A stretch of 63,760 bases of DNA, the filler included, from Asterionella formosa (taxonomy: Eukaryota): assembly GCA_002256025.1 (NCBI GenBank). It is 14 parts of 14 records of this genome, joined end to end, with 100 filler letters (N's around TTAATTAATTAA, not from the genome) between each part and the next. Parts side by side here need not be neighbours in the genome. Positions count along the whole stretch, not along the records: positions 1 to 16,971 come from NKIB01004642.1; 13 more parts are not named here. One strand, 5' to 3'. Every line of letters starts with the position of its first letter. Position 1 is the stretch's first letter. Positions 1-53,381 of the stretch are shown piece by piece. The notes beneath the pieces are model-generated. The model had not been told where the DNA came from. It searched no databases and saw only the letters and a list, made by a program, of their open reading frames with translations. The position numbers and the translations under genes were made by a program.

Positions 1-388
1 GCTGTTGGGAAGAGAATGACAGTGCCACGTATGTCTGCAAATTAGAAGTGTCATGTAAGTAGCATCAAGGTATCATGCACCAAGTAGCACAGGATTTTTC
101 GGTTTATGATACATTTGCATGTACATGTATGTATGATCAAATCCTACCATAAGTATGATAATATTATCATACCAGTACTGGTACTTTAAATGATAATATT
201 ATGCATTGTATTGGTTGTCATAATTTGTCAGAAACAATTCCAATCTACAAATAAACATCTTAGATCTACAATGCCAATTATTGGAACAGCCACCATAAGA
301 ATACTACCGGTAGTCAAATATGATCACCCTAATTAATTATTTCGATGGCCCACTATGACAAATTGGGCTACATACATAAACAACTTAA

Positions 389-1642
389 GGTTGCTGCATT
401 TGAACCTCTAGCTAGAGGTAGGGTTTAAAAAATAATATTGAGTCGGACTAATCAAACAGGTACTTTTCACGTATAAAATAGTTATATTTAACGCTCAACG
501 GAGCTTTCACCAATACACACCCTTTCCAAATGCTTACATACAGTCTTCGGACAAAGTAGGGGTGTAGGTCCACTCTATATATCTTCAGTATGTAGGATCT
601 GGTCAGAAACTGCAGAAAGGAACTTCTGTTTTTTTACTATGCTAAAAAGACTCGAAAATTCGGGAGAAATCTGTTTATTTGGCATAGTAAAAAAACGAAG
701 TTCCCCTCTGCAGTTTCTTGCCAGAAGTTATATACTGATGCTATTTGAAAGTTACCTATGTATCTAAATCGCCGTCAGACCCAGCCAACGTTTAGCTATC
801 ATCGTCCAAAAACTCGCATCGTCCCAAAACTCGACAAAATCGGCCTTTTCTACAGTCGCCAAAATATCGGAATCACAATTATTAAGTGCCGAAACGTCAT
901 CATCGGAATGGTAGCCGTGTGCCGGAATTTTTATTCCTAAAATCTCCTGTCCAAAAAATCCATTGTAAGTGCCCGCTTCCACATGTATAATATAATTGTT
1001 GAATGTGAATTACATTCCTCTGTTTGATTGGCCTGGTTTGCGAGGTCTTGCAAACCCATACCGGCCACATTGGAAAAAATGTAACATTTTCTTGGGCGTA
1101 CTTACAGTCCGGTTCTATATTCACGACAGGTACCAGTTGATGATCATCATTGAACATAAGCATACCGCTCCTTGAGTGCACTTTCAAATATTTGCTGAGC
1201 CGCCGGGTCGTATACGTGACACATAGTCGTCGATTGGAGTATAGATTGTAGTACTGGTGTATGCACATGAAGCGATGTAGAATCTAAATAGATATAAATA
1301 TGTATATATATATGTGCATTAAATGATTTGAATATGTCGAACTGATTCAATGGATAGCATATAAATCGCTAATTGGAGTATAGAGTGTCCATGCGCACAC
1401 ATGTTGATTGTATTTTTAGCGTATACCGGTATATACATACAGGAGCAACTAAGAGTGTCTAAATATATATCTAGCGATTTCGACAAGGAATCTATGTACA
1501 TATTCGCAAATTTCCACTGATTAAAATATTTCAAATGGAATCACGTCATTCAAAAATAGCTAACTAAATTCTTAATTCCAGGGAATTGTGGAAACCCTGA
1601 GCAATAATATAATTTTTGCCTAGGTTTTCAAATGCAGCAACC
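389..1642. mobile_element. Non-autonomous Kolobok-like DNA transposon (complete copy, 1254 bp)
   Basis: Perfect 16-bp TIR GGTTGCTGCATTTGAA at 389 and its reverse complement ending at 1642. TTAA flanks both sides (385-388, 1643-1646). Colinear homologue at about 20483-21490. A TTAA target with purine-purine (GG) termini fits Kolobok rather than piggyBac (CC). Confidence 0.85.
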
Positions 1643-1909
1643 TTAAGGGTATGACATCAAATATAAAATGTCATCCATCATAGAATAAAAATGATAGGAG
1701 TGAACTAAGATAGTTTCAACAACTTCCATAAACTTTTATAAACCCACATAAATTTTGGGGCAAACTAACAATATGTTGTGTGCCTGATCATTTAATTTCT
1801 GTATCAACAGCCACAATTATTGTTCGCAGCAATCAACTGTAATTTCTATGAAGAGCAAAGTAAAATGGCAATGCTATAGCAATATTAATGTTGTTGTCAT
1901 ATCCATTCA

Positions 1910-2020
1910 GGGGAATTTCTTCATGGTTAGCACACCTGTTGCGGGGGCAGGTTCGATTCCTGCCTTTTTCATGTAATCCCTAGGGTTCCGGTGGGTCCGG
2001 CTTACGAAAAGACAGGTCCC
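1910..2020 (+). repeat. tRNA-derived SINE-like short repeat, copy A (partly deleted)
   Basis: B box GGTTCGATTCC followed by CCTGCCTTTTTC...TGTAATCCC...GAAAAGACAGG. Aligns with copies at 12282-12413 (+) and 12055-12177 (-). Confidence 0.7.
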
Positions 2021-2302
2021 GTTGTACTGTATGGACGAATAAAACCAGTACTAATAGTGTTCATTTATTCTTTCGTGGACACGAGTGCGATAATTGGATA
2101 GCTTTAATAATGGAATATAAGATTTGATTGACAATTTTTTGTCATATCTATTCAAACTATTCATATTTACATTATTTGCTGAACAGTATGCTTATTTACA
2201 ACATTATTTTATTTCAAGTAAAACTTTCTATATAAATAACATGCATGTGAATAAATTTTATGTATACATGCATCCACAATCTCGTTGTTGTCATGCTGGA
2301 AA

Positions 2303-2818
2303 ATGGTGGTAACGAAAAGTGCCATTCTCCTGTTGTTCTTTTCAACCTCGGCATGTTCGGCATGGCTGTCCATACCGACAAAGCAAAAGGCGACTGTGTC
2401 CTTCATAAGATCAGAACCAAGTCGTTTGCAGCAGAACGGTAATCGAGCTCTTTTTAGTTCTATGGAATTTGAGTCTGGGGTGCAAGTAGTCTCGTTGGAA
2501 GTGCTCACGAACCATGAAGAAGAGGGATCATTGCTGGCAGTGTCGCTTATCAAATGGTTGGATGCCGAATGGATGCCTCAGGACATTCATGTGACCATGG
2601 GAGAAAGTGCGAAGAAGAGCTACATAGAAGCACGCGAAAATGGCGAATCGGACATCATGAGTGTAATGATACGAGTTGCTGACGATCTCCGCGCCAACTG
2701 GAAAGTATATGAAAAGGAGGCATTTGTCAACGAATGGGATGTCGCCAATTACTGTAGTGACTACTTCACGCAGCGGAGCGGAAATGAGGCATGTGATTGC
2801 TCCACAATGATTTTATAG
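2303..2818 (+). CDS. Conserved hypothetical plastid-targeted protein (cyanobacterial/plant-type family)
   Basis: First ATG at 2303. Hydrophobic signal peptide ending CSA-W followed by a Ser/Lys/Arg-rich transit-like stretch. Core motifs WLDAEWMPQDIH and EAFVNEWDVANYCSD recall a conserved photosynthetic-lineage hypothetical family. Confidence 0.75.
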   Translation: MVVTKSAILLLFFSTSACSAWLSIPTKQKATVSFIRSEPSRLQQNGNRALFSSMEFESGVQVVSLEVLTNHEEEGSLLAVSLIKWLDAEWMPQDIHVTMGESAKKSYIEARENGESDIMSVMIRVADDLRANWKVYEKEAFVNEWDVANYCSDYFTQRSGNEACDCSTMIL

Positions 2819-3440
2819 ATGAAACAGTCGCGAAACAATTACAGCTTGTTATCCTATTTATTCAATCTCAGCATTTACATTTTTCTCGTAGGCTTGTGCA
2901 AAGCTATGATTTGTTGTCTCAACTACCAATCGATTGAATTCAGACCGAAGAGGAAAGGAAAAGCCAAGTGAGCCTTGGTCCACGCTCTGGATCGCTGTCG
3001 CTGCCAGCTAAGATTCCAATTTTTAGCCTGTGCAGAATCAAGCAGCGAGAAATACTTGTCAGACCCTGAAATGTATACATTTAAAAATAATTACAAGTCT
3101 CGAGGTTGTTGATAAATTTCAGTAAAATTGACTTAGCTTTGCAAAATTTCCAGCACAAATAAACTCATGCAAACTTCAGATGCTTTCTTGATGGTCTTAT
3201 CTCATGTTCGATGACCAGCTAGATTATTCATGTACTTTGGGCATTGAGTGGAACATGGAAAGGTACAAATTATGAAGAGACAAACTTTAAGAAATGTTTG
3301 ATTGACAGAAGTCAGCGTATTGATTTAAAGCACAAATTCACATTCGTGCCGTCACACACAAAGGTTAATAATCTACCGCTTTACCTGATGTGCAAAAAAT
3401 GTTCCAACTGCAATCCGTCAGATTCACGTTTAAACAATCG

Positions 3441-5381
3441 CTAGACCATTTCAAACTCTGGATCTATATCATCTGCAGGTTGCTGATCTTCCCCTTCTTC
3501 GTTTGCAAAGCCTCCTTCGTCGTCAAATATTGCTGACATGGCATCGTAGTTTATCTTCCTAGAAATCTTCCGTGCACTGACAGCTGCGAATAAGGCCTCC
3601 TCCGTTGTTTGTTGCAACTCCTCTTGCAGTGTACTTGATTTTCGCTTGCGGCCTCGCTTGTTTAGGTACCGAGCGTGGCCTTCTGCTTGTGCCATTTCAT
3701 CTTGTTCTTTATGTGTCAATGCTGCTTCTTGTTGTTGGCGTTCTGCTTCCTTTCGCTCTTGTTGTTCGAGGTATTCTTTGTTGAGTGAGTTGAAAATAGC
3801 TTCTTTTTGAGCCATCTCCACGTCAGATCTAAACAACGACTCAATACCTTCCACGTGAGCCTCGGGCATGTCAGACTTCCAATGTTGAAGATTCAATTTG
3901 TCTTCATTTAACTGTGTCGATACTTGCAGTTCTTCTTCTGTCGCCTGGTTGGGTAGAACAATGACACGACCGTACTTGGACTTTGGATACATTGATGCCA
4001 GCAGAGGGTTTGGAGCCGTGAGTGCTCCGTCAGCCCGAAGTACAACCTGTTGGTCCTCGGACCGGCCTTCTTCGTCGTCTTGCTGCTCATGCACTTTCTC
4101 TAAGGCCTCGGTTTGTTCCGAATATTTTTCCACGTCAATGTGAGCTTCGTTTTTCGGTCCATTGCCGGCATGTAGTGTTTCCTGTCCTTCATCTCCAGCA
4201 GGCTCATCACTCATTCCTTCGTTTGTGCTTTGTACGGTGCCGTACGTGAGATCTTTCGCTAATTCCATGTATAATGCAGTATGCTCTTCTCGGTTTTTGG
4301 GCTTTCTTCCCCCTTTGCGCCACATTGTAGAATGCTTGCCTTCAGATGGATCGTCCAATGCACCAGATGACAATAGTTGAACGTTACCTTCCTGGATGGC
4401 CCGAGCTCTGGCCTCGCGAATGCGGTTTCTAGTGAAAACTGGAGGATCTGCCTCTGCTTCCAATTCTACAGTATTGAATTGTTCCAATGTCAATGTTGCG
4501 CTCGGTGTCTGTTCAAACTCCTTAACTCGATTCGTCACAGTCAGTCCACACACCCTCAAAATGCGACTCACATCTTGATGATGGCGCGAAAATCCGTGTG
4601 CGCGAGCAGCAATCAACAGAGCGGCAGCGCAAATACCAGCAGGTCGGCGACCTGCGACAATCCAATCTCGCTTCATCCGTCCAACCAGGCGCAGAGCGGT
4701 CAGGGCCACTGCATTGGCTTTGTGGTCCAGATCCAGATGTGCAGCAAATCTGTATACATACAGTGCAGGATCAATAATTTCCAACTTGAGACCGAGCAGT
4801 CGTCTAAATTTCAAGAAACAAGTTCCCAAGGTATACACATTCACTTGCAAGGCATCCGAAAAATCAATCAACATATGCTGACTCTTTTCTTGTCGACATG
4901 CAATATACAAACACGCCGCGACAACATGAGTCGTTCGTCGTCCTTGCACAAAGTTCTTTTCCACGGCAATCGTAAATAAGCGATGTGCAGCATCGACATA
5001 GTGTGATCCCAATCTTAGCCGCGAAGCCACATCTTGAATCCTTCTTCGGCCATTGGCCAGCGTTGTTTCTCTCGAATCTCTGGAGAAGCCGTATCGTCCT
5101 CCTCTCCCCCCTCCAGTGTATGCTTTGCTGCTAGTGGCACTGACAAACTGTCCCACCATGCTGCTTGCCCCACCAGCTCCCTCGACGAATTCTACTGACG
5201 AGACAATGGCATTTTCTTCCACCACGACGCCGCAGTCGGTGCAAATGGAAGCTCCCGAAGCGTCATGCTGTTCTATTTCCTTGGAACCGCAATTGGGGCA
5301 CAACAGTCGGGAGGACTTTGTCGGAGGTGGTGCCACAGCTTCTTCGGCTGTATTTGCAGCGAAGGAGACTGTGCGAGACAT
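3441..5381 (-). CDS. BRF1: TFIIIB subunit BRF1
   Basis: Zn ribbon CPNC...CTDCG, two TFIIB cyclin repeats (FVQGRRT, GRRPAGICAAALL) and C-terminal SRKINYD motif. First in-frame ATG at 5381; the ORF-track start at 5450 is TTG. Confidence 0.95.
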   Translation of the reverse strand: MSRTVSFAANTAEEAVAPPPTKSSRLLCPNCGSKEIEQHDASGASICTDCGVVVEENAIVSSVEFVEGAGGASSMVGQFVSATSSKAYTGGGRGGRYGFSRDSRETTLANGRRRIQDVASRLRLGSHYVDAAHRLFTIAVEKNFVQGRRTTHVVAACLYIACRQEKSQHMLIDFSDALQVNVYTLGTCFLKFRRLLGLKLEIIDPALYVYRFAAHLDLDHKANAVALTALRLVGRMKRDWIVAGRRPAGICAAALLIAARAHGFSRHHQDVSRILRVCGLTVTNRVKEFEQTPSATLTLEQFNTVELEAEADPPVFTRNRIREARARAIQEGNVQLLSSGALDDPSEGKHSTMWRKGGRKPKNREEHTALYMELAKDLTYGTVQSTNEGMSDEPAGDEGQETLHAGNGPKNEAHIDVEKYSEQTEALEKVHEQQDDEEGRSEDQQVVLRADGALTAPNPLLASMYPKSKYGRVIVLPNQATEEELQVSTQLNEDKLNLQHWKSDMPEAHVEGIESLFRSDVEMAQKEAIFNSLNKEYLEQQERKEAERQQQEAALTHKEQDEMAQAEGHARYLNKRGRKRKSSTLQEELQQTTEEALFAAVSARKISRKINYDAMSAIFDDEGGFANEEGEDQQPADDIDPEFEMV

Positions 5382-5636
5382 GCGTTTTGGAATGCTTGTA
5401 TTCGCACCGGTAGTCTTGGTGATGAGGAACGAGGTGAGGGATGTTGCCAACTAGGACTGTGCAACGCACAAGCGAACATATGATACCTTATGGTACGAGT
5501 ACTTATCACCGGTACCTGGTACCGGTACCGGTACTGTAATACATTCTTTCTGATGTGTGGAATAGAATTTACCGGTACTCACCTGCTCCAGATTTACTGG
5601 AGTATCACGGTCTTGAAAAATTACTCCAGCCATACT

Positions 5637-5760
5637 TGGGGTCGTTCTTATCATTTTCGATTTGGTATCATATTTTTTGAAAAAGTATCATGCAACGGCT
5701 ACTCGATTTAAATCGAAAAAATCCATTCTCCACAAAAATAAAAATAAAATTGTATCATCA
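5637..5760. mobile_element. Isolated PIF/Harbinger-type terminus
   Basis: GGGTCGTTCTTATCATTTT...GAAAAAGTATCATGCAACGGCTACTCGATTTAAA matches the reverse complement of the element end at about 32150-32266. Confidence 0.65.
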
Positions 5761-6217
5761 AAAAGTATCACGAAAATTCAACGGTTACGGGCTGGCTACA
5801 AACATGTGCTTTTCCTTCCAGACTACCTGTACATAATGGTACCAAACCAGTCCTCAAACCATGCAAGAAATCTACGCGAATTATGTATATGGATTACTAT
5901 AATCAATGGTATTTGCACAGGTATTTGTTGTAGTCACGTGATCATTTTCGTATTCTATTATCATTTTCGTATTCTATTGCCTAGTACTTTGTCATGAATT
6001 CCCGAATATCAGTACCAGGTACTGGTACCTGTAATTAGATACCGGGTATGTCTCTATGCACATGACTCAATCTGTTCAATTCTCGACTTTGTGGTTGTCG
6101 TTCTTTGGTGTTGTGACTGAACATTGCAACACACGGCCGCTAGAATGATTGTATGGTCCTTCTTTGATGCACACCATAACATGTATATTTTATGTAGATG
6201 TAAGGAAAAGTACTGCC

Positions 6218-6426
6218 CTGCAGGCGTATTTTCGGTTATTTTATTAGTGACAACGGAAATGATACCCGCGTGAAAACGTCAGTATCACTGATACCGTTTT
6301 TGGAGGGGGCAAAAAAAGGTATCAATTTTGTATCAATGATACAAAATTGATACCATCAAGTTACCGTTGCTGATACCGTGTTTTGATACCTACCGTCACT
6401 TTTGGCCCGCAACCCGGAAATGATAC
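6218..6426. repeat. About 200-bp GATAC/GTATC-rich dispersed repeat (probable transposon end)
   Basis: Inverted homologue at about 29545-29726; both copies end at CTGCAGGCGTATTTTCGGTT. Confidence 0.7.
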
Positions 6427-6589
6427 AGCAAATTCGGAATGATAAGAACAACCCTTGAACCACACGTATTTGATTCGTCATTTGTAAAATCAGTACCAAT
6501 GTTACCAGTAGTTTCATGTACAAGTTCAACACAAGGAGCTCCATGCATTTTGCTCTTGCTTGTTGTATGGACATACTGGTACCAGTAGT

Positions 6590-7090
6590 GCACTTTGTCC
6601 TTCTCAAATGATCAGAATGTCTGCAATGTTTCCATTTCTTGGCAGCGGAAGGTTCAAGACTTCCTTGAGCATCCATGGTGACTGCTATACCGGATTCGTA
6701 AGTTCTTCCTCTTTTCTTGTTTAATGGTTTCAAATTGTGCACTATGCTGGATTGCTTTGCTTCGTTGCAATGATTTGTTCGCTTTTTTGTTGTTAACTCC
6801 AAAAGGTTTGTTGTTGGGTTGACATTGTCATCCCCAGCATTTCATATACATCTGACATGTATTTATCAGCGCCTTGTGTCCTCTGCTGCTGTCCTGCAAC
6901 TGATGCTACTCAATAGAGCAGGCTTTGGGAGCCAGCGAAAATTTTGTTTTTTGGACAACCCCTTCCAACAGCATTGTTCATCACTTCATTCATTTGTGTA
7001 TCAATTGGGTGATGTAATGCTTTGAGTTTCTCACCTTCCATCCTTTTGCCAACATTTTCAATTAACCAATCGAACATTTCCTTGTTGTTA
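6590..7090 (-). pseudogene. C-terminal remnant of the Kolobok-like DDE transposase
   Basis: Hand translation FDWLIENVGKRMEGEKLKALHHPIDTQMNEVMNNAVGRGCPKNKIFAGSQSLLY*VASVAGQQ aligns almost residue for residue with FYDWLMFNVAAKVEGEKLLSLYHPFDTQINEAMNNAVSRRCPNNKVFAGSGSLQYRVASVAGQQ in the 36-kb ORF. Contains a stop and frameshifts. Confidence 0.85.
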
Positions 7091-7105
7091 ATAGATGACC
7101 AACAT

Positions 7106-7557
7106 TCATTTGCTACTATGTTTAATCATTTTAGACACTGGTTGGAAACCAGTGTACCCTTCTTTGTGATCCGTATTCTTGAGAAGCGAACAAACCCCCT
7201 TCAGGCAACAATCTGGAAGTTCCATGCGGATGCCTTTCCCCAAGGAGCCACAGAATGTCTTGACAAGAAACTTGTAGTATACAAGGTTTCTTCCTTGACA
7301 AAGCATGACTACATTTTCTTCAAGTCGAAGCTGAACCAAATCCGTCTCCATGTATTGCTCAACTAATTCCTCCAGCTCGTCCCATTGACATTGTTGACAC
7401 TCTTAGCATGCAAAGTCACAAATTCACAGAAGATTCGGTTCCCGCAGCCTTCAACTTCTGACTCAGTAATGGCATGATCAATACAAGTAGGGCACGGAAC
7501 ATGGTTTTATGGAAGAGGATGAGAGCCATTCACTACAGGCAATGCAACAGAACTCAT
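7106..7557 (-). pseudogene. KolX/P2X7-ballast-like Cys-rich ORF (two stops, one frameshift)
   Basis: Hand translation ...CPTCIDHAITESEVEGCGNRIFCEF/CDFAC*ECQQCQWDELEELVEQYM...GRNLVYYKF...GSLGKGIRMELPDCC...YTGFQP. The N-terminal half is homologous to the ORF at 53092. Confidence 0.75.
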
Positions 7558-7640
7558 TGTTGATTGTTGCGTTGCTCGACATTATTTTGTTGCTCAAACA
7601 AGAACCAATATCATATACATAGATTCTCGAGGTATTTATA

Positions 7641-8045
7641 TGTCAAGAATATAAGCCCAAGTCACAAGGATTGTGGACTCAATTGTAATTGAATGAGTCG
7701 AATATTGCATTGCCACATCAATCATCTGTCTAACTAGATCAAAGATTGAAGATTTATATGGAAATGTTAAGTGGAAACTCGAAGAGAGTCTTAGAACGAC
7801 TTTGCGGGAAGCGAAGATGCATGGAAAGGAAACCTTTAGTTTAGCTTATAATTTAATTTGAGTTAAGATTATCAACCAAGGAAACAGAGTGTTAATTGAC
7901 AGGAAGGTCAATTAGTCTATCTAGCAGGAAGGCTAGAAGCAGAGACAAGAGAGAAAGTAAGTGGCACTAGGTAGTACTACAAGCATGTACGAGTCTACAT
8001 GAAGAGAGACCCAGCCCACGGGAAGGAGTACAGACCATTTCAACA
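7641..8045. mobile_element. Solo LTR (405 bp) inserted in the Kolobok-like element
   Basis: Starts TGTC and ends AACA (TG...CA). Flanked by the direct repeat TTTATA at 7635-7640 and 8046-8051. Removing it restores the expected terminus-to-ATG spacing of the host element. Confidence 0.75.
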
Positions 8046-8051
8046 TTTATA

Positions 8052-8305
8052 CTAGCTCAAGTCTATACATGCATTCTGGCGGTGAGTAAAATTATAACTA
8101 CATTGAGCAATGTAGATATAACATAAACATCTTCATTCTTTTTGAAATGGAACTCTGTCAATGTGGAGCCATTTTCTACTCAGTTTAAATATTCAAACAG
8201 GTACTTGCATCATGGGAATACACACAAACAAATTCTGATTTCCACGTCAATTTTACAACCCTAGCGATTTCTTCTTCAAACCAGGGTTAAGCGGGGGCCG
8301 CAACT
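8052..8305. mobile_element. Degenerate terminal segment of a Kolobok-like element
   Basis: ACATTGAGCAATGTAGA and a final AACCCTAGC...GCAAC segment match the reverse complement of 52762-52965 and the right end of 389-1642. Confidence 0.55.
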
Positions 8306-9775
8306 TCAATCAATAACGGGAGTCGTGATCATAGAAAATAAAGTCGTTGAATTTCCTGCCGGATCTTCCCCTTCAGTTCGGCTTCGAGCAGGCCAACATA
8401 TTCAAATTGAATCTTCCATGATGTGAACGGCTAAATGTTTCACAATCTAGATGTTGCCAGCGTATTTACCGCCACATTCGGGAGGTACTGTACAATGTAC
8501 AGCAACATTAGAAATTAATTAGGGACTATGACATGCTTCGAAAGGGAGTGCATACTTTCCAAATCACTGTCGTATTTACCTGGTATCAGGTACTGGTACC
8601 AGGTACTCTGGATTCCTGTACGTGGCCTACAAGAGACTTACTGGTACGGCGACAACCATGAACAGTTTATCTGGTACCGGGGACAGTTCAGTAAAAACGT
8701 CCAAGTTGAATTAGGTTTCCCTAATAGGTATGTAATATTGGTGAAGCATTGATTACAGACACTGTCCTAATTTATATTTCTTGTCTGATGCTTGAAAAGA
8801 ACGAAAGCGACAATTACATGTACTATTTTGAAGACGGTCAAGAATGCCAAAGTTGTTGCAAAGCGAACCCTAAAATGACCGATTTTGTATCCTAACCGTT
8901 ACATTTAGCCACCACAGCAGCATGATGTATGGGTANNNNNNNNNNNNNNNNNNNNNNNNNNNNNNNNNNNNNNNNNNNNNNNNNNNNNNNNNNNNNNNNN
9001 NNNNNNNNNNNNNNNNNNNNNNNNNNNNNNNNNNNNNNNNNNNNNNNNNNNNNNNNNNNNNNNNNNNNNNNNNNNNNNNNNNNNNNNNNNNNNNNNNNNN
9101 NNNNNNNNNNNNNNNNNNNNNNNNNNNNNNNNNNNNNNNNNNNNNNNNNNNNNNNNNNNNNNNNNNNNNNNNNNNNNNNNNNNNNNNNNNNNNNNNNNNN
9201 NNNNNNNNNNNNNNNNNNNNNNNNNNNNNNNNNNNNNNNNNNNNNNNNNNNNNNNNNNNNNNNNNNNNNNNNNNNNNNNNNNNNNNNNNNNNNNNNNNNN
9301 NNNNNNNNNNNNNNNNNNNNNNNNNNNNNNNNNNNNNNNNCTAGTAAACTCTCGCACGATCAACTAACAAACACTGAACACTGTTTGTACTTTCATGTGC
9401 AATCCTATTCCTCCTTCGTGTGCAGGCATTCCTGCCCATGGTCATTCGTTTAAACAATTTCAACGTGACATCGACTTCACATGTATGTACGATGTTCATC
9501 GTCGTTCCAAATGCCTAATACCGGTACTCAAACCGAATTAGATTGGCCGAAATATCACATCGAATAGGATGACTCCTGCTGGCATTCGAGCCAGCGATTT
9601 CTATATCGAACGTCCGAACTTGTATGTGGCATTTGAATAATGCTCCGTAAAAGTGCCTGTAGTTGAGTGCCTCAGAACAATTCTCTATTATATACCGTTG
9701 TAGGTTATGTTAGCGCCATGAGCGAAGAAGACATTCACACGAGCAAGAACGTAGAATCCTACGGCAGAAATAGCT

Positions 9776-11281
9776 ATGGACGAAATTGGAAATGCTCAGC
9801 CATGTCACCAAACCACGTTCGTCTTTATAATTAAGGTGCATTTTCTCGTACACTTGCATGCTATTTTCGACAATGTTAACATCGGTACCTCGTCCGATTT
9901 TCAGCCTAGACATGATGAACTCTCCTCCTTTCTCCGATGGTGGCCCTGATCGCATCGATAATGACCGAATTGGCAGCCACCAAGCTTCTGATGTGCGCAT
10001 GGAAGGTGGTGGAAGGCCTTCTCCAGGATCAATACGCCCTAGCAAGGAAGCAGGCGCGGCTTCCGCCCTTACTAGCCTTGTCAAGAAGCCCACCGTCGAA
10101 GACGTCGGTGAAGACTTCGATCTGCCTCAACGATTCACGAAGAGCGGTCGAAAAAAGGCAATTCCCTTTCCTCTCAAGGTATGTGGTGACTGATCCGTTT
10201 TGCGCTGCATTCGTCGTATTTGACATTCAAATGTAGCTAACAAAGCTTACATCGTTCGTGTGAAAATGCAAACAAACATCTCACAGTTGATGAAGGTGCT
10301 CTCACAAAAAGAATACACTGACATCATTACGTGGCTTCCTGACGGAAAGTCCTTCACCATCATTCGCCCCAAATCCTTCGTCACTGAGATTTTGCCTGGC
10401 TTTTTCAAAAGCTCGAAATACTCTAGTTTCACAAGAAAACTCCATCGTTGGGGATTCCAGCGTCATTTGAGAGGCGAAGATGCGGGTGCATTCTTCCATA
10501 AACACTTTATACGTGGACGTCTTGATCTCGTGGATAAGATGACTTGCCACAAGGATGACGGTTCCTCAATGGACATGCAACGTGCTTGTGTTCCCTCTGT
10601 TAATCATCGGGAAACAGGCGGAGGGAGTAATTTTCCCCGAGACCCAATTGTCAGAGCAGTTGGCACTCCAGCAAACGTCATGTCGCATGACTCCCAGCTG
10701 CAACTTCAGCAGCAGCTCCAGCAACTTCAGCAGATGCAGCAGCAGTTGCAGAGCTTGCAGCAACAACAGCAGCAGAACATTGTAATGCACCAACAACAAG
10801 AGCAGCTCGAACTGATGCGAAGTCAGGTGCAACATCCCATGCAAGCTGGTCAGCGACTGGACAGCAGGGATGTGAATTCTGTCGACCGACTCAATGCCGC
10901 CATAGAACTTGAAGTCAGTCGACGTCTTACTGGGCGTATGCATGGGGGCAACGATCGATTCATTCCCCAATCAATGCCTGTGTTCAACAACTCAGATCGC
11001 CTTGCATTATCACGGCAAGCTCTCGCCATGAACCTTGTGATGCCGTCCCAAGCTCAGCAGTTCAATGTTGGACCTCAATTCAACACCCAATCATTTCAGG
11101 GACTTCAAAATCTGTTAGGTAAGAGACAAGGTTGTTAAATTGAAGTGGCGCTTTTTAATATCTCACATGATGAACGAATGTTCCTTTATGCTCAGGTGGC
11201 CAAGATACTATGAATATTAGACACGGAATTAGTAGGGGAGATGTAATGATGGACAGTGAGGGGCCACTACAGAGGTTCTAA
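9776..11281 (+). CDS. Heat shock factor (HSF) transcription factor with polyQ; predicted exons 9776-9816, 9905-10178, 10287-11118, 11196-11281
   Basis: HSF DNA-binding domain PFPLK|LMKVLS...IITWLPDGKSF...KYSSFTRKLHRWGF is joined by the in-frame GT-AG intron 10179-10286. The first and last exons are inferred from phase-compatible GT-AG sites and are less certain. Confidence 0.88.
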
Positions 11282-12054
11282 ATGAATGCATGTCTGATGA
11301 AGTTGAGAGAGGGGTGATTAACTTCAATTCAGATATATGAAATTGTCAATGTTAGTAATTGTTGTTGCTGACTTGAGGGAGTACTGGTAATCTCAAAAGG
11401 TATTTTGCCAGTAAGTATACATGCAATATACAAAGTTTAATTTGTACAGTACAAAAATTATGTGGTTTATTTTGGCAGTTATCATTAGTTACAAGTCTAA
11501 AATTCTTCTACTTATGTCTATTGACTAACAAATGGTCAACAGATAAGGGGGTCCAGAGCAAACATTCTCATTGGGGTGCAATTCTACAAAAAATGCGCCA
11601 AAAAAATAAAAACGAAGTCAGGTTCACCTAATTGTAGACCATTTAGAACATATTTTATGTACACCATTATGTTCGGAATAATTTTTATAAAGGAGGGGCT
11701 ACTAGATGGAGAATTATTGGAGGTTGCGCTTCATGTGAAGCAGTGACCTAAAGGTTGGGTGCAACTATACCGGAAGAGAGGGAGTACATAGGATATATGC
11801 TAAGGGTACCCGAGGTAGCCTTGTTTGTAGCAGCTAGTGTATAATTATTTAGCTTTTTAGGGCAGGTCTTAACATATGAAATAATTAGGTAAATTTTATA
11901 GTACGATATTGTTAAAGAACTCAACAATTGTGGAGGTTGTGAAGTCGCACTTTGCCCCTGGTACCAGCACCAGAAATGTATTTTCGAAACTATACTTCGA
12001 ACAAAGTGCTAGATATATCAATATTCATTTGGAAAGGCAAAGCCAGAGGGCCTT

Positions 12055-12177
12055 AGACCTGCTTGTTGTCTGCCTCACCACCTGGAACCCAAGGGACTAC
12101 AAAACAAAGCAGGTGGAGAATGCGGGAATCAAACCCCTCACCTCGGAAGGTGAGCTAACCCAACTAAGCAGTTCCCC
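12055..12177 (-). repeat. tRNA-derived SINE-like short repeat, copy C
   Basis: Minus strand reads GGGGAACTGCTTAGTTGGGTTAGC...GGTTTGATTCCC...CCTGCTTTGTTTTGTAGTCCCTTGGGTTCC...AACAAGCAGG. Confidence 0.7.
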
Positions 12178-12281
12178 AAGAAAGTGTATATTTTTTCTCC
12201 TTTTTCCACCTATTATTAGCCTGCTGGACCATATGTTCTACCATGAGAAAATACCTTCCTTGCACAAAAGTGTTTCTAAAT

Positions 12282-12413
12282 GGGGGGAATGGCGTAGTGG
12301 TTAGCACACCCTTCTGCGGTAGCGGGTTCGATTCCTGCGTTCTCCCCCTGTCTTTTTCATGTAGTCCCTAGTAGCAGGGTTCTGGGGGGTTCCGCTGACG
12401 AAAGGACAGGTCC
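12282..12413 (+). repeat. tRNA-derived SINE-like short repeat, copy B (best preserved)
   Basis: A box TGGCGTAGTGG, B box GGTTCGATTCC, acceptor-like stem GGGGGGA/TCTCCCC, shortened anticodon arm, then a 3' stem-loop. Confidence 0.75.
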
Positions 12414-12428
12414 TACAATATCTGTTCA

Positions 12429-12523
<95 letters not shown>

Positions 12524-13329
12524 CGGGGGCATCCGCCCACCATGACCTTCTCCTGCCTTAAGTATTGAACTCTCTGATAAGTGCCACACACCTGAGCGAT
12601 TTCACCATGATCAATTTCTTATGGATGTATTTGCCGAGGTTGGGGTGAGTGACTTCAAAATATTCCACATCAACTGGCTGTTCTAGAATATTCCTGCAGG
12701 TCCACGCACACTATAGCGTATATTGCTAATGCGGCTGATGTCAAATGCATTTGTCCGGAAATATTATCATTTCAATGACTCAAAGATAGTAATTCGCGCC
12801 GCCTCCAGTTGCCTAATCAGTCTGAACAAACTTGGCAACAAAAATCAGATTGGAAAAGGGCGTTGATGTCATATGCACGTCTTGCACTCTCCTCTTCGAC
12901 AGAAACATTGTCTCTCCTCCGTCAAAGACTAGGAAGACGGACAACACCACCAGTCCAAGTAAGGAAAATATATTTTGTTCTTCACACAAAGCAACTGTGG
13001 CGAAGAGTTTGGAACACATGATGGTTTCTTCACAACTCAATCTCAACCTCCCGACTGTCCACCATAGTCGAATCAAGGGGAGTGGCCACCACCCATCGCC
13101 TTCCTAAGTCAGCGCTCCCATGTGATGTTACAAAAGATTGGCAGGTAGTAACATACAGGGTAATAGAATGCTCCTTCCAGTCCGCACCAGGCACAGGAGT
13201 CGGCAACAACATACATGGAGCACATAGCTTGCCTACTAGCCTCTTATCAAGGGGCGTCTAATGTATGACCTAAAACTGATTTCATCGTCGGCTCCTTCCT
13301 CAAGACTGCAAAGACAACTTCTACTAGGT

Positions 13330-14130
13330 CTTCCCTGTTATGTGGGCACGGAGGGATCATATAAAAATGGAAAGGCATCGCACGACGCCTGGTCCTTGCG
13401 TCTGCGAATGACCAAATCCAACGTTCCTTGGGAAACAGTCTCCTGTGCTGGACCTGTCAATGGCGAGCCGGAAGGGAACAGCTCTACCAGCCAGAGCGGA
13501 ATTGTTTGCAATTGTCTCAGCCCTTAAATTCTTTCAAGAGTTTCTTAGATATCATTGCATAAACTCCTCCAGTCAGCAGGTATACATCTGGAGCGACAGT
13601 GAGTCTTTTATACACCGGATTCAGAAGCTCCAAACACAACTATGCATGGTGGGTAGGCTTCCACCAAATGCAAATATTGTGTCATAAATATCTCAAATTA
13701 TCAATACAGTCTCCATCACCACCAAATTACTAGCATGGGTTCAATCCCACCAAGATGCACCAAAAGGCACCAAACAGTCGCAACTTATCTCCGAGTGCCA
13801 AACTAATTATAAGAGCAGATTGCCTGGCAGAAATGTATCTAGCATCACATCTGTGCGGCAAGACAGGTCATCCAATCCCGAATTCATGCCATTTTCCGTC
13901 CAGCAAAGCCATTTTACTTATCAGAAAGACTAGAATTGACAGTGACTCGTCCCACCGCGCGCATGCAGCTCTCGTCTCATATCTTAGATATTTTACAGAA
14001 AAACACAAGATTACCTTTGGATATAATGAGAAAAATTGGAAAACCTTTTCATGTGAGTTCAAGAAGAAATCAAACTCAGAACAAACGATGGTTGCAAAGT
14101 TTATTCATGGATGGCTTCGTCTGCAAATAA
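13330..14130 (+). pseudogene. Degenerate non-LTR retrotransposon RNase H region
   Basis: Frameshifted motifs YVGTEGS...GPVNGEP, RAELFAIVSAL, IWSDSES, WVQSHQD, IRADCLA and KFIHGWL are typical of RNase H domains in LINE-type elements. Confidence 0.7.
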
Positions 14131-16639: not shown

Positions 16640-16970
16640 ATAATTCCCAGCAAGTATACAGTACTACCGGTAGGCCAAATGAATTTTGGTCAATATGTCT
16701 ATATACATAAATGTATGATTTCGACCATTTGAAAAATTGGTGATGACTCCCGACTATTAAGGGGCTTAATTAAATCAGCCACTGACTTGTAGGTAAAAGA
16801 ATTGACACAAAACAAATTGAAAAAATTCAATAGGGCATGGAAAACTATGAACTCATCATGCATTGTACTTTATATTTGAATTATGTATAATCAAAATTGA
16901 TATTAGTATACACACCAGGATATGCCATATAGTAATGAGCTTGTTGAAAACTATGCAAATGTTCAACTTT
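16640..16970. repeat. Dispersed repeat with an inverted homologue at about 50200-50480
   Basis: AGGGGCTTAATTA...CACTGACTTGTAGG matches the reverse complement of CCTACAAGTCAGTG...TAATTAAGCCCCT. Confidence 0.55.
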
Positions 16971-18259
16971 ANNNNNNNNNNNNNNNNNNNNNNNNNNNNN
17001 NNNNNNNNNNNNNNNTTAATTAATTAANNNNNNNNNNNNNNNNNNNNNNNNNNNNNNNNNNNNNNNNNNNNTGTTGAAAGAGAGGAATGAATGTAAGTTT
17101 GGTTGACAAAACTGATGTTTTCAATTATATGAGCTTAATTCTAGTTGGCAAAATGAGGAAGGTGAGGAAGTGCCAGAAGCAACTAATGAAGTGCTGGCAT
17201 CATGGAATGAGTACTGAATCTACAGAATCCTAAGGGAAAGGTAGAGAAGTGCCAGTAGCAAGATCAGAGGTGCTGACAGTAAGCTGTGTATGAATGTACA
17301 GCCTGGTACCATAGACCTGCCTACTTGGTACCAGCAGCATTGTGCTGGTGCTGTTATACCAGTACTACTATGCATAAAACCTGGTAGCATGACTAAATTC
17401 CCGCCGGAAGTATCATCATGGTACCTGGTGCCTGGTACTAGGTATCACAGAACCATTTTCTGGTGTCCGGTACTAGGTACTACCGGGTACCAGGTACAAA
17501 ACCTGGTACTGCTAAGCATCACTAAATTCCTGCCAGCAGCCGGTGTGCAAACCAGTAGTACCTGGTAGTAAAGTGCTGCTCCAGCAGTATGGTGCTGCCG
17601 TCATTGACAGGGCAGAACCGATTTAGCGCTACTGTTGGTAATATACCAGCATTGCTCCTAGTAGCTACTACTAGTATACAAATGACCAGTATACTGACTC
17701 TAGGACGATAGTACTGGGTACAACCGTCACTTTATGTAGTTTTCATTCCTTTTCCTTCCAGCAATCATTTTTACAAATATTGCCACCAGTACGTTAGTAA
17801 GGAATTTTCTAGGACATGATCAACCCCCTCCAATGTTGATCAGTGGTGAACCTCCCATGATGGTTCCACTTAAATAAAGTTCTTATATTTATAAGGTACC
17901 TTCACTTGCTAGAGCACTAACCCAGCTGACTCCTTCTGTCAGTCATGGCAGTGACACCCTGCTGATGTCACCCTGAACCCGAAAACGCGGACATTACCTG
18001 ACCTTGCAGTACTAGATGACAATGTTGGTACCAACATATCATTTTATTATTGATACATTTGCCAGTCCTTGCCACCATTTCCTTCCCGATCAAGCTTCTT
18101 CCAAGACTAGAAATACAGAAAATATCGCACAAAACTTACGTAGACAGTCGTTCTCAATACCCCAGTGGTTATATAATTTGTTAATTCAACAATTTGTGGG
18201 GGATGCCCGACAGGCATCTCAAGGTCCAAAAACATGGATTATGGTCGGAAGGCGCCGAT

Positions 18260-20371: not shown

Positions 20372-20482
20372 TGCCAGTAGGTCAATGGATGGTTTGTCAA
20401 TCATGAGGTGCAGCGACGACATGACGTCAGCAAGGAGTTATTTTGAAATGTTATTGTTCGCATCGTCAAAAATTAATAGAAC

Positions 20483-21490
20483 AGGCAGTATTTGAACCCG
20501 TAGCTGGAGGTAGGGTTCAGACTTCTCAAACACGTACTTTTCACGTCTAAAATAAATATGTATATCGCTACTCGGTGCTTTCACAATTGGACACCCTTTC
20601 TAAATGCTTAGATAAAGTCTTTGGTCAAAGTAGGGGGTATAGGTCAACTATATCTAAGATCGTCAAGATATAGAATATGGCAAGAAACTGCAGAAAGGAA
20701 CTTCAGTCTTTTAACTATGCCAATAATAGTGGATTTTACCTGGCCAAACGGTTTATTTCTTGCTTGGCATAGTTTAAAAAAAAACCAAGTTCCTTCTTTC
20801 TGCAGCAGTTTCTTGACAAAAGTTATCTTCTGCAGCTATATGAAGATTACCTAGCTATGTATTTAATTTTTCTTCAAACCCAGCCAACATTGAGCAATCA
20901 TCGTCCCAAAATTTGACAAAATCGGCCTTGTCAATGGACTCCAAAATATCAAAATTAGAATCACTAACCGCCGAAATGTCGTAATCAGAAAAGCAGTCTT
21001 GTGCTAAAATTTTTAGCCGTAAAATCTCCTGTTCAAAAAATTCGAGTGTGAGTGCGTGCTGCATTATTTATATTCTGATTTGCTATTGAGAATTACTTTC
21101 CTTTTTTATTGGCCCGGTTTGTGCGGTCTTGCAAACCCACACTGGCCACACAGGACACACTGGATGCAAATGTAACATTTTTTGGGAGTTTAGAGGTACT
21201 GTATCCACACCACTGGTTGCTGATCATCATTGATTGTACGCGTACCAGTACAAGAATGCATCGTAGTAAAGGGTATATATACATTGAGTGATGTAGAATG
21301 TTTAAATATAAATTTAGCAAATTCGAAAAGGAATCTATGTATGTATGCGCCAATTTCCGCCGATTTAAATATTTCAAACGGAATCATTGATATTCATAAT
21401 TTGTACATTAATTTTCCCAGTTACAGGGAATTTCGGAAAATCTAGTAAGCAATATCTTAATTTGTGCCTAGGGTTTCAAATGCAGCAACC
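20483..21490. mobile_element. Second non-autonomous Kolobok-like copy (left end degenerate)
   Basis: Colinear with 389-1642. Right end TTCAAATGCAGCAACC followed by TTAA at 21491-21494. Confidence 0.8.
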
Positions 21491-21517
21491 TTAAAATACT
21501 TTCAATAATATGGTAAT

Positions 21518-21621
21518 AGGAAAATGATATTTTGTCCCCCAAACCCTAACACTTATCTTCAGATGCTACCATGGAAGAGTCTGGGGTTACTAGGGTTAGG
21601 GGGACAAAATATCTTTTTCCT
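21518..21621. mobile_element. About 100-bp MITE-like inverted repeat
   Basis: AGGAAAATGATATTTTGTCCCCC...GGGGACAAAATATCTTTTTCCT, flanked by AAT/AAT (or TA/TA if the termini are GG/CC). Confidence 0.7.
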
Positions 21622-36079: not shown

Positions 36080-37678
36080 ATGTATTGTTTTCGTTTCGTT
36101 TTCTCTTCCGTTTGAATTGCGCCTTGTAGACTGCATCGTCATTCCGTCGCTTTTCCTTTTGCCTCCAGAAGGATTCTTGCAGTTGTGACATTACCATTCC
36201 ACATCGTTTGTAGACATCGCTCATGTATTTTGTGACTCCTTGTGTTTGTTGTCCAGCAACCGAAGCCACTCTATATTGTAGGCTACCAGATCCTGCAAAC
36301 ACTTTGTTATTTGGACATCGTCTTGAAACTGCATTGTTCATTGCTTCGTTAATCTGTGTATCGAAGGGATGATACAATGATAGAAGCTTTTCGCCTTCGA
36401 CTTTTGCTGCAACATTGAACATTAACCAATCATAAAATGGTCTTTCTGTTTTCATATCGTGATATTTTCCATTGCTGACATTTTTTCCTGCTTTCACAGG
36501 ACACCATGTCTCAGAACAAAAGTCACGACGGCCAAACAAGTGGTTGATTGGTGCCTTTGATGATTCCGTAAAATCAATCAATGATAGGTTCGAGCTTCCA
36601 GTTACGTGATTCTTGGAACAAACATGATGCTTGATAGGTTTCTTGTACCGTATAGCCCTGTCACACACATTACAGACCTTTGATTTTACTCGATAGTTTA
36701 GTATCTTTCTTGTGTAGCCACCGATGCAGAATGCATGCCCACTTACAGAGTTGTACTTATTTCCACTTGATAGCTGCTGCCAGCCCATATCGTAACTAAC
36801 TGTCAGGCGTGGCATACTATTCTGCACAACTGTATGTTCAGTACCAGATAGTGACTTCCACCACTGCAAATCATGTCCTTTGTCTGCCCAATCAACTCGT
36901 TCATGCACATTGAGTGTCTGGTATACTTCTGCATCACATGCCTCTTGCATCGCAAGAGCTGTTGTTTCCAGTTGAGCTTTCCCAACAAGCTCCTCAACAG
37001 CACAGAAGTTTCCTTGCGCTGACCAGTACCCAAACAGATGATGTCTGCATCGCCAGGTCCCAATCCCGCCTCGTGACAACCCAAAATAAACTGTTGGTTG
37101 ATTGAAAAGTGTTTTGCTTCAATTTCCTTATTTGTTATCTCAACATTGCCTTTGGTGCTGTTGCTTCTTGGAGATTCAAGTTTAGCTATCACTAGCTATC
37201 TGACAGGTCAGACAGGTGATTTGTATGTCGCTTGCCAAGCCCAAGTTCTCAGAGGACACAACAATCAACGGTTGCGGGATGCATGGGATTTCCGTGGATA
37301 GAAACGCTTTTTCCAAATAGGATTCAGACTTCTGATTTATGCTAATGTGATAGGCACTATCACTTTGAAGGTAATTTACAAAGTCTTGTACTGCTTGTTT
37401 ACAACATTCTTTGACATATGCATTTACACAACTCTTGCAAATCACATTGTCATTCAACAATCTGGTGAATGAATCACAGTCAATTAAGTTGCTCCTATTC
37501 TGCTATTCAGATGGTAGTTGTTTCTGTTGTTGTATAGTCGCTTTAATTGTGGGGAGAGGAGGCGAGGATGTTGATGACAATGACCACCAATTCTGATTTT
37601 CATCGCTGATGACATTTCGACCTAATGTCCACCAGTTCCCATTTCGGAAATAAGACGGCCACCACTAGCACGTGGCAT
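36080..37678 (-). pseudogene. Kolobok/Mutator-like DDE transposase, internally deleted and frameshifted
   Basis: Motifs GLASDIQITCLTC, FSINQQFILG, SYDMGWQ...NSVSGH, KSKVCNVC...CSKNH.TGSS, HLFG...CSETWC and TQINEAMN. The middle catalytic-Asp region is missing. Confidence 0.85.
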
Positions 37679-38375
37679 GTTGATGTTGTTGTCTATATTG
37701 TTTGTTGTTACTATTGATGGGTTAAACTATTAAACTATAGAACAATGTTAAAAAAATTATATAGAGAAAGTCGAAGAATACATGCCACCTCACTTGCTTC
37801 TAAAGGATTTTGAACCGACATACGTAGGCGCATTGAAGTGATAAATATATTGAAATGAATGAATATTCCCGGACATGTGCACTCATTGGCGGGGTCGACT
37901 ATCATGTTCTTTGATCCCTCTCCTGTGCCCGCATCTGACCCTGACGGAATCTAGCACTCCGGTAAAACCCCCCAAGTTTTTTTGGAATGGGGGTTTTTCG
38001 ATTGGGGGAATGCGTTTGACCCTAAAATAGTTCCTGCCAAATCAAATTCTAGCATAATACCGGTAGTATTCAAAACGATCATGCCACGAATGAAAGATAA
38101 CCGTTTTCCGAGCTAGCCAGATTATCTGTCCAAATCGTCATTTCGGCAATTTTACTAACATTTTAATCTCGGATAAAGAAAGCTAAATCTTTAGTTTCAG
38201 TAAAATTACCACAACTTGCTGGTACCGTACCTGGGGGTATCATCTTATACCACCCCATGTCGTAACTCTGCTTTTTAAGTTGGAAATTGCAGGTAGCTAA
38301 AGCTATAGCTACCTGGTTAGTATACCATCAGCCATCAGTTATTATTCCTATATACAGTCATCATCTACGGTACCC

Positions 38376-52227: not shown

Positions 52228-52761
52228 NNNNNNNNNNNNNNNNNNNNNNNNNNNNNNNNNNNNNNNNNNNNTTAATTAATTAANNNNNNNNNNNNNNNNN
52301 NNNNNNNNNNNNNNNNNNNNNNNNNNNATGCATGTTAACATGCAAACCATGGAATTACTGCCTAGTAGATAAAATATTTAATAACAATTTAGGTAGTAAA
52401 CAAATCTTTGTCAGGGTCAAGGCTGAGGCAACATTATGCAATTTTTGCTCTCTGGCCGTTCAGAAAGACTACACTGTAGTGTTTTAAATAGAGAAAAAGC
52501 ATAATCTAAGCTAAATAATTACATTCTAATGCCTATGTGGGCTACCTTGGGTACCCTGTACATGAATCCATTAAAAGGTGTATGATATATTGCATGTTTC
52601 ATGGGCAATACATTGCTTACTTCACCTTATGTTTACCGGTATGTCGTTGTATCATTAACCACAGTGTTATGTAGCTAGGTATGTGGATGTGATGGCATTT
52701 GGGTTGAAATGATGACATCACACATTAAGGAAAATTGAAACTTGAAGCAAGCGTACTTTAA

Positions 52762-53381
52762 GGTCCCTGCATTTCAACCCTAAGGCAAAAATTAAAATAT
52801 TGCTTAGGGTTTTGGAACCAAGAATTTTTATGAGTTATTCTTGAATGACATGAATCCATTTGAAATATTCAAATCAGTGGAAATTTGCGCGTAGGTACAT
52901 AAATTCGTTTTCGAATTCGCTAAATATATATATATATATAAACATTCTACATTGCTCAATGTATACCATATAGTAACCTATACCGGTACTAATACGATCA
53001 ACATATATGTAGCACACAAGCTGGCAGTATCATGGCAAATATTGTTGATGACTACCGGTAAGAAACAAACAAACACAACAATCCGCCCACCATGAGCGAA
53101 ATTACACATCACAACGATGACAACGGCAATGACGAATTTAACTACAGTCATGACAGTTGCTGTCCTACCTGTCAAGACCGGTTGATTGTAGAGTCGACTG
53201 TGGAGGGATGTGACGGTCGCATCTTCTGCGAATACTGCGATTTTGGTTGTCCAAAATGTCAGTGCCGATGGGATGAAGTAAAAGAGTTGGTGGAAAAGTT
53301 CTTGGAAGGTGAATTCATTCTCAGCAGAGTGAAGGATGAAGACATTACGGCATCAAGAGGATCCCGCAAGCTTCTATACAA
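52762..53381 (+). mobile_element. Kolobok-like element 5' end carrying the KolX-like ORF
   Basis: TTAA (52758-52761) followed by GGTCCCTGCATTTCAA; about 200 bp homologous to the reverse complement of the 389-1642 right end. Confidence 0.8.
53092..53381 (+). CDS. Cys-rich KolX-like protein, uninterrupted up to the gap (partial)
   Basis: CCPTC...EGCDGRIFCEYCDFGCPKCQCRWDE...SRKLLY; homologous to the pseudogene at 7106-7557. Confidence 0.7.

Follow-up and report, generated by a model that had tools for sequence, protein, structure and literature searches.

The window analyzed here is a 63,760-nucleotide (nt) stretch of DNA from Asterionella formosa (assembly GCA_002256025.1). On its minus strand, positions 7106..7557 hold ORF1 (open reading frame 1) of a transposon copy that we term copy 1, running from an ATG at 7557-7555 to a natural stop at 7108-7106 and resembling KolX and the ballast domain. 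The remnant of a transposase C terminus (Kolobok, PF20700 type) follows on the same strand at 6779..7088. With a probability of about 0.85, we read copy 1 as carrying the decayed ORF1 of a two-gene Kolobok-superfamily transposon, and ORF1 as a very divergent member of the family that includes KolX and the ballast domain of the P2X7 receptor (PF20478, ZCD).

Two minus-strand stop-to-stop frames cover much of the locus, 7402->7106, which ends in '...GRNLVYYKFLVKTFCGSLGKGIRMELPDCCLKGVCSLLKNTDHKEGYTGFQPVSKMIKHSSK', and 7506->7363, which begins with 'NHVPCPTCIDHAITESEVEGCGNRIFCEF...'. A first-pass annotation of this DNA had quoted such strings together with an upstream cysteine cluster, and all are present in these minus-strand frames at the positions that it gave. 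It had also called for repair of the frame. When read from the ATG at 7557 and compared with intact relatives, ORF1 is not one open frame and is broken at three places. A stop interrupts the frame at 7509-7507; one nt is missing at 7422-7421, within the cysteine cluster, where two bases replace the relatives' Cys codon and shift the frame; and a TAA lies in frame at 7405-7403. In tblastn alignments, residues 1-44 of the intact relative P0017 align to 7557-7423 and residues 46-148 to 7420-7109, with 81% amino acid identity over the latter segment. Because it contains two stops and one frameshift, ORF1 of copy 1 is a pseudogene. A 98-residue piece of it retrieves three longer database proteins (E values of 2e-21 to 7e-28), well beyond a chance resemblance.

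A metagenome scan for ORF1 loci yielded eight loci (L001-L008), and these show what copy 1 has lost. The transposase remnant at 7083-6784 corresponds to residues 226-323 of another frame in the window, 37118->35970 (61%, tblastn), and the interval 6779-7088 also matches L001 3470-3755 and L006/L008 by blastn. An internal deletion with its junction at 7088 has brought ORF1 directly against the last ∼100 transposase codons. Copy 1 is an internal-deletion derivative of the element and, with ORF1 broken and most of the transposase gene deleted, is non-functional as a whole. Its 5' non-coding part occupies 7558..8261 on the minus strand; similarity to L004/L005 reaches ∼8235, the 5' end is approximate, and ∼440 bp upstream of ORF1 (7611-8048) are missing from L004 and L005. 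No match to the element's terminal inverted repeat (TIR) and no convincing inverted repeat was found around 5500-8935, where the ends of copy 1 are approximate and its terminus is degenerate. The subfamily of copy 1 is represented by L004-L008, at 84 to 89% nucleotide identity.

Intact relatives of ORF1 are present in the databases (P0001-P0035), and relatives of ∼150 amino acids occur in metagenomes. P0002, one of the proteins matched by the 98-residue piece, retrieves 35 proteins, all of them without an informative name or a precomputed Pfam assignment, and in an ESM-Atlas look-up with the ORF1 family the matches scored 0.85 or less and were without a family. The core protein of ∼150 amino acids begins with M-S-E/S, followed by CPTC, 12 residues, C, 5 residues, CxCCDFxCPECQCRW, an acidic helical stretch, and the C-terminal block RNLLYKFLIRVFxGPLGKGVRMxLPDCCLKGVRSLLKNKDxxExYTGFKP. 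Eleven Cys positions are invariant or nearly so in 11 intact members. A diverged second subfamily, that of L004-L008 and copy 1, stands at ∼55 to 60% amino acid identity. The 90%-identity cluster of P0008 comprises 46 member sequences, and two members, P0180 and P0187, lie on 58 and 22 contigs, respectively, as expected of a repeat. Between subfamilies (L001 versus L003), the ratio of nonsynonymous to synonymous substitution (dN/dS) is 0.24 over 149 codons at a dS of 0.47, which shows purifying selection on ORF1; the L001-L005 comparison is saturated at synonymous sites, and the L001-L002 pair is without a synonymous difference.

Relationship of ORF1 to the P2X7 ballast domain

The earlier suggestion that the ORF resembles the P2X7 ballast domain and KolX is borne out by sensitive methods only. 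A profile of the ORF1 family, searched against 1.84 billion representative sequences, retrieved 88 proteins at E values of ≤1e-3. We then scanned against Pfam 38 of the 49 weakest of these matches and 3 closer ones (the 11 left out were mostly shorter than 90 amino acids). PF20478 was found at E values of ≤0.01 in 27 of the 38 distant proteins, 15 of them above its gathering score of 23.5 bits; the remaining 11 had no Pfam match, nor had any of the 3 closer proteins. The best bridge is P0067, which matches the family profile with an E value of 1.6e-6 and PF20478 with 29.2 bits, over positions 20-191 of 192, and which also has a CExCDxxCxxCxCRW cluster like that of the ORF1 family.

Consistent with these results, an hhalign comparison of the family with the 15 proteins that pass the PF20478 gathering score gave a probability of 99.4% (E value of 1.2e-21) over 95 columns, versus 0.2% for a control comparison with a Cys/His-rich transposase alignment. 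A widened profile of 56 sequences (the family plus distant proteins) matched human, mouse, and rat P2X7 with E values of 3.3e-6 to 4.6e-4, including 9e3m (E value of 3.3e-6) and 6u9v (E value of 1.8e-4), on P2X7 residues 537-593. Because 44 of its 56 rows are distant proteins, this match shows that the distant proteins are kin of P2X7; the kinship of the ORF1 family with those proteins rests on the 88-protein profile search and on hhalign. In ORF1, the ballast signature R...Y...G.LGKG.R..LP.CC...VR......Y.GF lies in the C-terminal 57 residues, on P2X7 537-593.

An AlphaFold2 model of P0017, built on the 56-row alignment, reached a pLDDT (predicted local distance difference test score) of 75.7 and a pTM (predicted template modeling score) of 0.67. 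The training set of the structure network predates the 2019 P2X7 structure. The first-pass annotation had proposed superposing a predicted structure on the ballast domain, and P2X7, at residues 395-595, is the top match of the model. Specifically, in a search of 48,161 representative chains that was independent of Foldseek, rat P2X7 (6u9v_A) ranked first with a Z score of 6.3 and a root mean square deviation (rmsd) of 3.5 Å over 96 residues; it was the sole chain with a Z score of ≥5, and the second rank scored 4.8. With VIA-align, all 14 P2X7 entries gave Z scores of 5.7 to 7.0 (rmsd of 2.9 to 5.3 Å over 84 to 102 residues, model residues 33-140 on chain residues 395-595), and the next unrelated row scored 4.4. 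We count this predicted structural match solely together with the sequence evidence, with which it agrees.

Residue conservation was compared with the published descriptions, here and below drawn from Rump et al. 2020 (PMC7016195) and Kojima and Bao 2022 (PMC9587614). The third ZCD motif, (L/I/V)PSC(C/S)x3IRx2(F/Y)Px5Y(S/T)G (PMC7016195), is recognisable in the ORF1 family in the altered form LPDCCx3VRx2LKx7Y(T)GF: LP, CC, [IV]R, and YxGF are retained, S is changed to D and FP to LK, two extra residues precede YxGF, and in copy 1 the R has become C. The equivalent of R546 is invariant in the family, and that of Y550 is nearly so. Three further residues of the rat GDP site, H547, R574, and K583, are not conserved; in invertebrate ZCDs, likewise, only R546 and R578 are kept (Rump et al. 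2020, PMC7016195). The first-pass annotation had proposed an extra N-terminal module, CPTC...C...CxxC. The module is present, as described, but it is not peculiar to the family: 4 of 7 non-diatom relatives in an alignment of the family with long-form relatives (A7) also have the N-terminal CxxC pair, which is therefore not a private addition of ORF1 and which lies outside the structurally aligned range.

Several observations weigh against this kinship. None of the 11 intact ORF1 members matches PF20478 at an E value of ≤10, and neither the window pieces nor P0001-3 nor the ORF1 of L001 gives a match to that model. Searched against PDB sequences, a profile of the family alone retrieves no P2X7 chain at E values of ≤10; with the A7 profile, P2X7 is the top PDB match at an E value of 0.13, over residues 537-592 only, and the sequence link to P2X7 is limited throughout to the last 57 residues. 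ZCD motifs 1 and 2 in their published form, PxWCxCx2C and LCCRx3GxC, ∼15 residues apart (PMC7016195), are absent from the ORF1 family, which has in their place CPTC, 12 residues, C, 5 residues, and CxCCx3Cx2CxC-R-W. The 11 conserved Cys would be enough in number for two zinc sites, but the A7 alignment did not place the N-terminal Cys on the P2X7 zinc ligands. The equivalent of R578 is R in the P0008-type subfamily only; the subfamily of copy 1 has C, H, or W there. On the structural side, a first AlphaFold model from 11 close sequences was unusable (pLDDT of 40), Foldseek gave no match at E values of ≤0.001 (the P2X7 top rows had E values of 1.4 to 4.6 and TM scores of 0.35 to 0.44), and Z scores of 6 to 7 are middling by the tool's own standard.

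An alternative explanation for these data could be that ORF1 encodes a generic small Cys-rich zinc-finger protein, its likeness to the ballast domain being convergent or compositional, a short C-terminal motif without a shared fold. The empty Pfam and PDB searches with the family alone are in keeping with this, the best PDB match of the family profile is the NEMO zinc finger (E value of 0.12, on the CDFxCPECQC stretch), and the structural Z scores are not decisive by themselves. Convergent or compositional likeness does not sit well, however, with an hhalign probability that falls from 99.4% to 0.2% in the Cys-rich control, with a bridging protein, P0067, that matches the family profile and nearly the full PF20478 model while sharing the Cys cluster, or with P2X7 as the unique top structural match among all chains searched. 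We therefore consider a generic zinc finger improbable and the remote homology of ORF1 to the ballast/KolX domain supported.

The carrier transposon and its copies

ORF1 had been described as transposon borne, and the carrier proves to be an element of Kolobok type, whose termini are GG..CC and whose flanks show duplicated TTAA. The small Cys-rich protein is encoded inside this element, upstream of the transposase. An intact element measures ∼3.9 kb (L001, ∼858-4794). In L001 and L002, an ORF1 of 152 amino acids precedes a frame of 794 codons (791 amino acids from its ATG); the two share a strand and lie 186 bp apart. The 791-residue protein matches PF20700, 'Mutator-like transposase', with an E value of 3.8e-43, its sole Pfam match at E values of ≤0.1, and PF20700 is present in every one of its 27 homologues in the database. 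The piggyBac-type transposase family, which we take to be PF13843 (DDE_Tnp_1_7), is thus not matched at this threshold.

By comparison of L001 with L002, L003, and the window, the element ends read 5'-GGTTCCTGCATTTGAACCCCTAG ... CTAGGGGTTCAAATGCAGGAACC-3' and form TIRs of 23 bp (GGTTCC...GGAACC). TTAA immediately precedes GGT at five of six 5' ends, and ...CC|TTAA is seen at two of three 3' ends; the exceptions are the 5' end of L001, which is without its first bases, and one degenerate 3' end. In the window, the terminus pattern was observed 5 times versus 0.09 expected. Kolobok is defined by TTAA duplications and RR...YY termini, which distinguish it from piggyBac (PMC9587614). Furthermore, the transposase alignment has the invariant residues D308, C347/C350/H363/C365, D403-405, D455xxH458, H517/H522/C525/C530, and E582, and the order given for Kolobok lineages in section 10 of PMC9587614 is D, CCHC, D, DxxH, zinc finger, E. 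By comparison with the text of that section, the invariant D/D/D..H/E columns of our alignment can be read as the catalytic residues. Since the TTAA, the GG...CC termini, and the layout of transposase residues match, the carrier is best called Kolobok despite the Pfam name; this assignment rests on termini and motif layout, with the lineage within Kolobok not placed by a tree.

One of the 27 homologues, P0142 (782 amino acids), combines PF20700 with matches to a DEDDh exonuclease (PF00929) and to DNA-polymerase-B exonuclease-like domains. It resembles the published KolobokD lineage, which supports the view that PF20700 is the Kolobok transposase family.

ORF1 and the transposase ORF of L001 (1131-1625 and 1803-4187) share a reading frame, and the 186-bp spacer between them is AT rich and contains stops. 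A spliced fusion of the two was considered and rejected: RNA-library contigs are colinear across the spacer and no joint is listed there, with which a rare spliced form would still be compatible. RNA contigs, drawn from one library in each of four studies, cover 30, 24, 29, and 18 of 30 bins of the L001 element, and contigs free of differences overlie ORF1. They are compatible with transcription of the element; such libraries can contain DNA, and the contigs give neither strand nor level.

Other joints were seen in the RNA contigs. Contig X5 (88 letters on its shorter side) joins L001 4174 to 4247 and leaves out 72 nt bounded by GT..AG. With this joint, the transposase stop (4185-4187) would be lost, and the protein could run on into an acidic ORF at 4194-4421. 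Joints with CT..AC ends, that is, GT..AG on the opposite strand, occur at L001 2023-2133, 2045-2133, 2323-2490, and 3401-3881, one CT..AC joint coming from a polyA library (X10, side of 194). They could reflect splicing of antisense transcripts or, instead, copies with deletions that belong to other organisms.

In L006 and L008 (L008 736-1659) the transposase is already internally deleted, its catalytic core gone, and ORF1 is kept; the deletion at 7088 in copy 1 is a further one. The subfamily of copy 1, in its L006/L008 form, may have been propagated as a non-autonomous element that continues to encode a KolX-like protein. Within the window, copy 2 lies at 52758..53381 on the plus strand, with TTAA at 52758-52761, a 5' TIR from 52762, and an ORF1 ATG at 53092. 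Its ORF1 is open for 96 codons, until its contig (52328-53381, 1054 bp) ends at 53381, and belongs to the sister subfamily (82% amino acid identity to P0008). Merging this ORF with the one at 7106..7557, as the first-pass annotation had proposed, is not feasible: the two are on different contigs and of sister subfamilies, the second is truncated by its contig end, and they cannot be one gene. A non-autonomous deletion derivative at 385..1646 on the minus strand has kept both termini, each flanked by TTAA and each matching the TIR exactly (385-404 on the plus strand and 1627-1646 on the minus strand), and lacks ORF1 and transposase; it matches L001 859-1086 and 4035-4794 by blastn. A second derivative, at 20490..21494 on the minus strand, has an intact 5' terminus with TTAA and a degenerate 3' terminus and is likewise without ORF1. 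At 36080..37679, also on the minus strand, lies a transposase gene remnant of the same superfamily that is internally deleted relative to L001; it contains the 382-codon open frame 37118->35970 (PF20700, E value of 2.1e-21), and tblastn found no ORF1 beside it.

Two further matches to the element ends were noted, a TTAA+TIR-like match with one mismatch at 27401-27420 (plus strand) and a core TIR match at 26512-26522 without a recognised partner. They possibly represent a solo end or a further deletion derivative.

The copies bear on a second explanation, that ORF1 is a fragment of a host gene that was captured by the transposon or merely adjoins it. The transposase copy at 37679-36080 and both non-autonomous copies are devoid of ORF1, as such a fragment would allow. 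ORF1, however, sits within the TTAA-flanked termini in the same place and orientation in L001, L002, L003, and copy 2, the ORF1-then-transposase order is kept in the diverged subfamily of L004-L008 and copy 1, and family members are found on tens of contigs; a host origin is very unlikely. The idea of a piggyBac-type carrier, with ORF1 among the short KolX-like proteins of a few piggyBac families, has in its favor the TTAA target site duplication and the resemblance of distant ORF1 relatives to piggyBac-2_GrCh_2p of Data S6 in PMC9587614, and we give it hardly any credence in view of GG...CC termini that follow the Kolobok rule of that paper and are not piggyBac-like, a transposase whose DxxH motif and zinc fingers are those of published Kolobok proteins and whose only Pfam family is PF20700, and an ORF1 that retains 11 Cys where the piggyBac proteins are said to lack most.

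Other content of the window

The window consists of separate contigs joined by linkers of N44, 12 nt, and N44, and features on different pieces are therefore physically unlinked. Three contigs are of ∼17 kb (1-16971, 17072-34024, and 34125-51073), and short contigs of 1053-1054 bp follow every ∼1154 bp from 51074 onward; joins or N stretches are given at 8936-9340, 16972-17071, and 34025-34124. Host genes on the long contigs encode a chlorophyll a/b-binding (LHC/FCP-type) protein, an HSF-type factor, BRF1, and a BRAP2-like protein, a set that fits a photosynthetic eukaryote and that we read as suggesting a stramenopile or diatom. Long open frames without a Pfam match at the thresholds used lie at 24665-25951 (plus strand, 428 codons), 42734-43897 (minus strand, 387 codons), and 34591-35385 (minus strand, 264 codons).

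Among the short contigs, one (54636-55689, minus strand) is occupied entirely by a Ty1/copia-like gag-pol fragment with zinc knuckles, a Pol beta-barrel, and gag_pre-integrase. An unclassified, ORF-bearing repeat family is near identical across short contigs, at 51202-51672 and 53615-53980 (plus strand) and also at 52082-52227 and 54390-54535. In the ORF at 61873-62664 (plus strand), a long proline-threonine repeat (KPT/PTxxPT) precedes leucine-rich repeats ('GTLPTEIGLLTSLNYLDLS'), as is typical of a surface leucine-rich repeat protein.

Proposed role and relation to known systems

In the model that we propose, an intact element consists of TTAA-flanked 23-bp TIRs, an ORF1 of ∼150 amino acids, the 186-bp spacer, and a 791-residue DDE transposase of PF20700. 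The ORF1 protein is predicted to have a compact 11-Cys cluster in front, a helical hairpin in the middle, and the ballast signature in its last 57 residues. By analogy with P2X7, whose ballast is reported to bind zinc and GDP (via PMC7016195 and PMC9587614), the Cys cluster would hold two, possibly three, zinc ions, and the equivalents of R546 and Y550, joined by that of R578 in one subfamily only, may form a candidate guanine-nucleotide site. Acting in trans, the protein would probably assist or regulate transposition, the kind of role assumed for KolX; the first-pass annotation had likewise suggested a regulatory role.

A bolder extension, which we hold to be doubtful, is that ballast/KolX did not arise in animals but has long accompanied TTAA-specific transposons throughout the eukaryotes as an accessory protein, with a compact three-zinc variant in diatoms that gives guanine-nucleotide binding in trans to the Kolobok transposase. 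The related P-element transposase requires GTP, and the three-zinc form acting in trans would be functionally analogous to that requirement.

A Kolobok element that carries a KolX-like gene in a photosynthetic stramenopile would extend the range of the ballast domain beyond animals. A free-standing version of the fold of ∼150 amino acids would allow study of zinc and GDP binding and of the role of KolX in transposition, and genome annotation gains a two-gene element model with exact termini. Our literature search found no paper on KolX in diatoms (Repbase was outside its scope), and the PMC9587614 supplements contain no occurrence of 'FCy', 'Fragilariopsis' or 'diatom'. That animal Kolobok elements (Kol0) encode KolX, a protein of the ballast fold, and that a few piggyBac families carry short relatives of it, was published in 2022 (PMC9587614); the same paper traces the origin of the P2X7 ballast to KolX of animal Kolobok, and the earlier survey covered Metazoa only (PMC7016195). 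What is new here is limited and comprises a Kolobok family of a diatom-type alga that bears a KolX-like gene, a divergent variant of KolX with 11 Cys that is invisible to Pfam, many unnamed aquatic relatives, and a transposase with a CCHC finger that PMC9587614 does not list for Kol0.

The closest known system is KolX of Kol0 (Kojima and Bao 2022, PMC9587614). In common are a second small Cys-rich protein beside a DDE transposase, a TTAA-specific element with RR...YY termini, and kinship to the C-terminal part of P2X7. KolX of Kol0 is reported from animals, whereas the ORF1 family comes from the genome of an alga and from aquatic metagenomes. Set against the published description rather than the Repbase KolX sequences, the ORF1 family is too divergent for PF20478 and has its Cys in one cluster plus an N-terminal CxxC. 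For a CCHC finger after the first D, as in the ORF1-family transposase, PMC9587614 lists KolobokP/E/D/5 plus a few solitary families without naming Kol0; the lineage may therefore differ from Kol0.

The short KolX-like proteins of a few piggyBac families (Data S6 of PMC9587614) share the C-terminal signature, as R..AY...G.LGKG.R...P.C....IR...P....Y.GF after C..C...PC.W, and most of our distant profile matches show the same C..C...PC.W-then-tail arrangement. Those piggyBac-borne proteins have only ∼4 Cys (PMC9587614), in contrast to the 11 conserved Cys and the Kolobok-type carrier of the ORF1 family. In animals, Nanor and the nanor-like ZCD proteins likewise consist of a ballast domain standing alone and are about as large (PMC7016195; PMC9587614); they differ in being domesticated metazoan host genes with the three canonical Cys motifs, and PMC7016195, in which 'transpos' does not occur, gives them no transposon context. 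Finally, the ORF1 family shares with the P2X7 ballast/ZCD (6u9v and 9e3m; PF20478) the equivalents of R546, Y550, G559, L569-P570, C572-C573, and Y588-x-G-F. In P2X7 this domain is the tail of an ion channel, whereas ORF1 is a free-standing protein of 150 amino acids.

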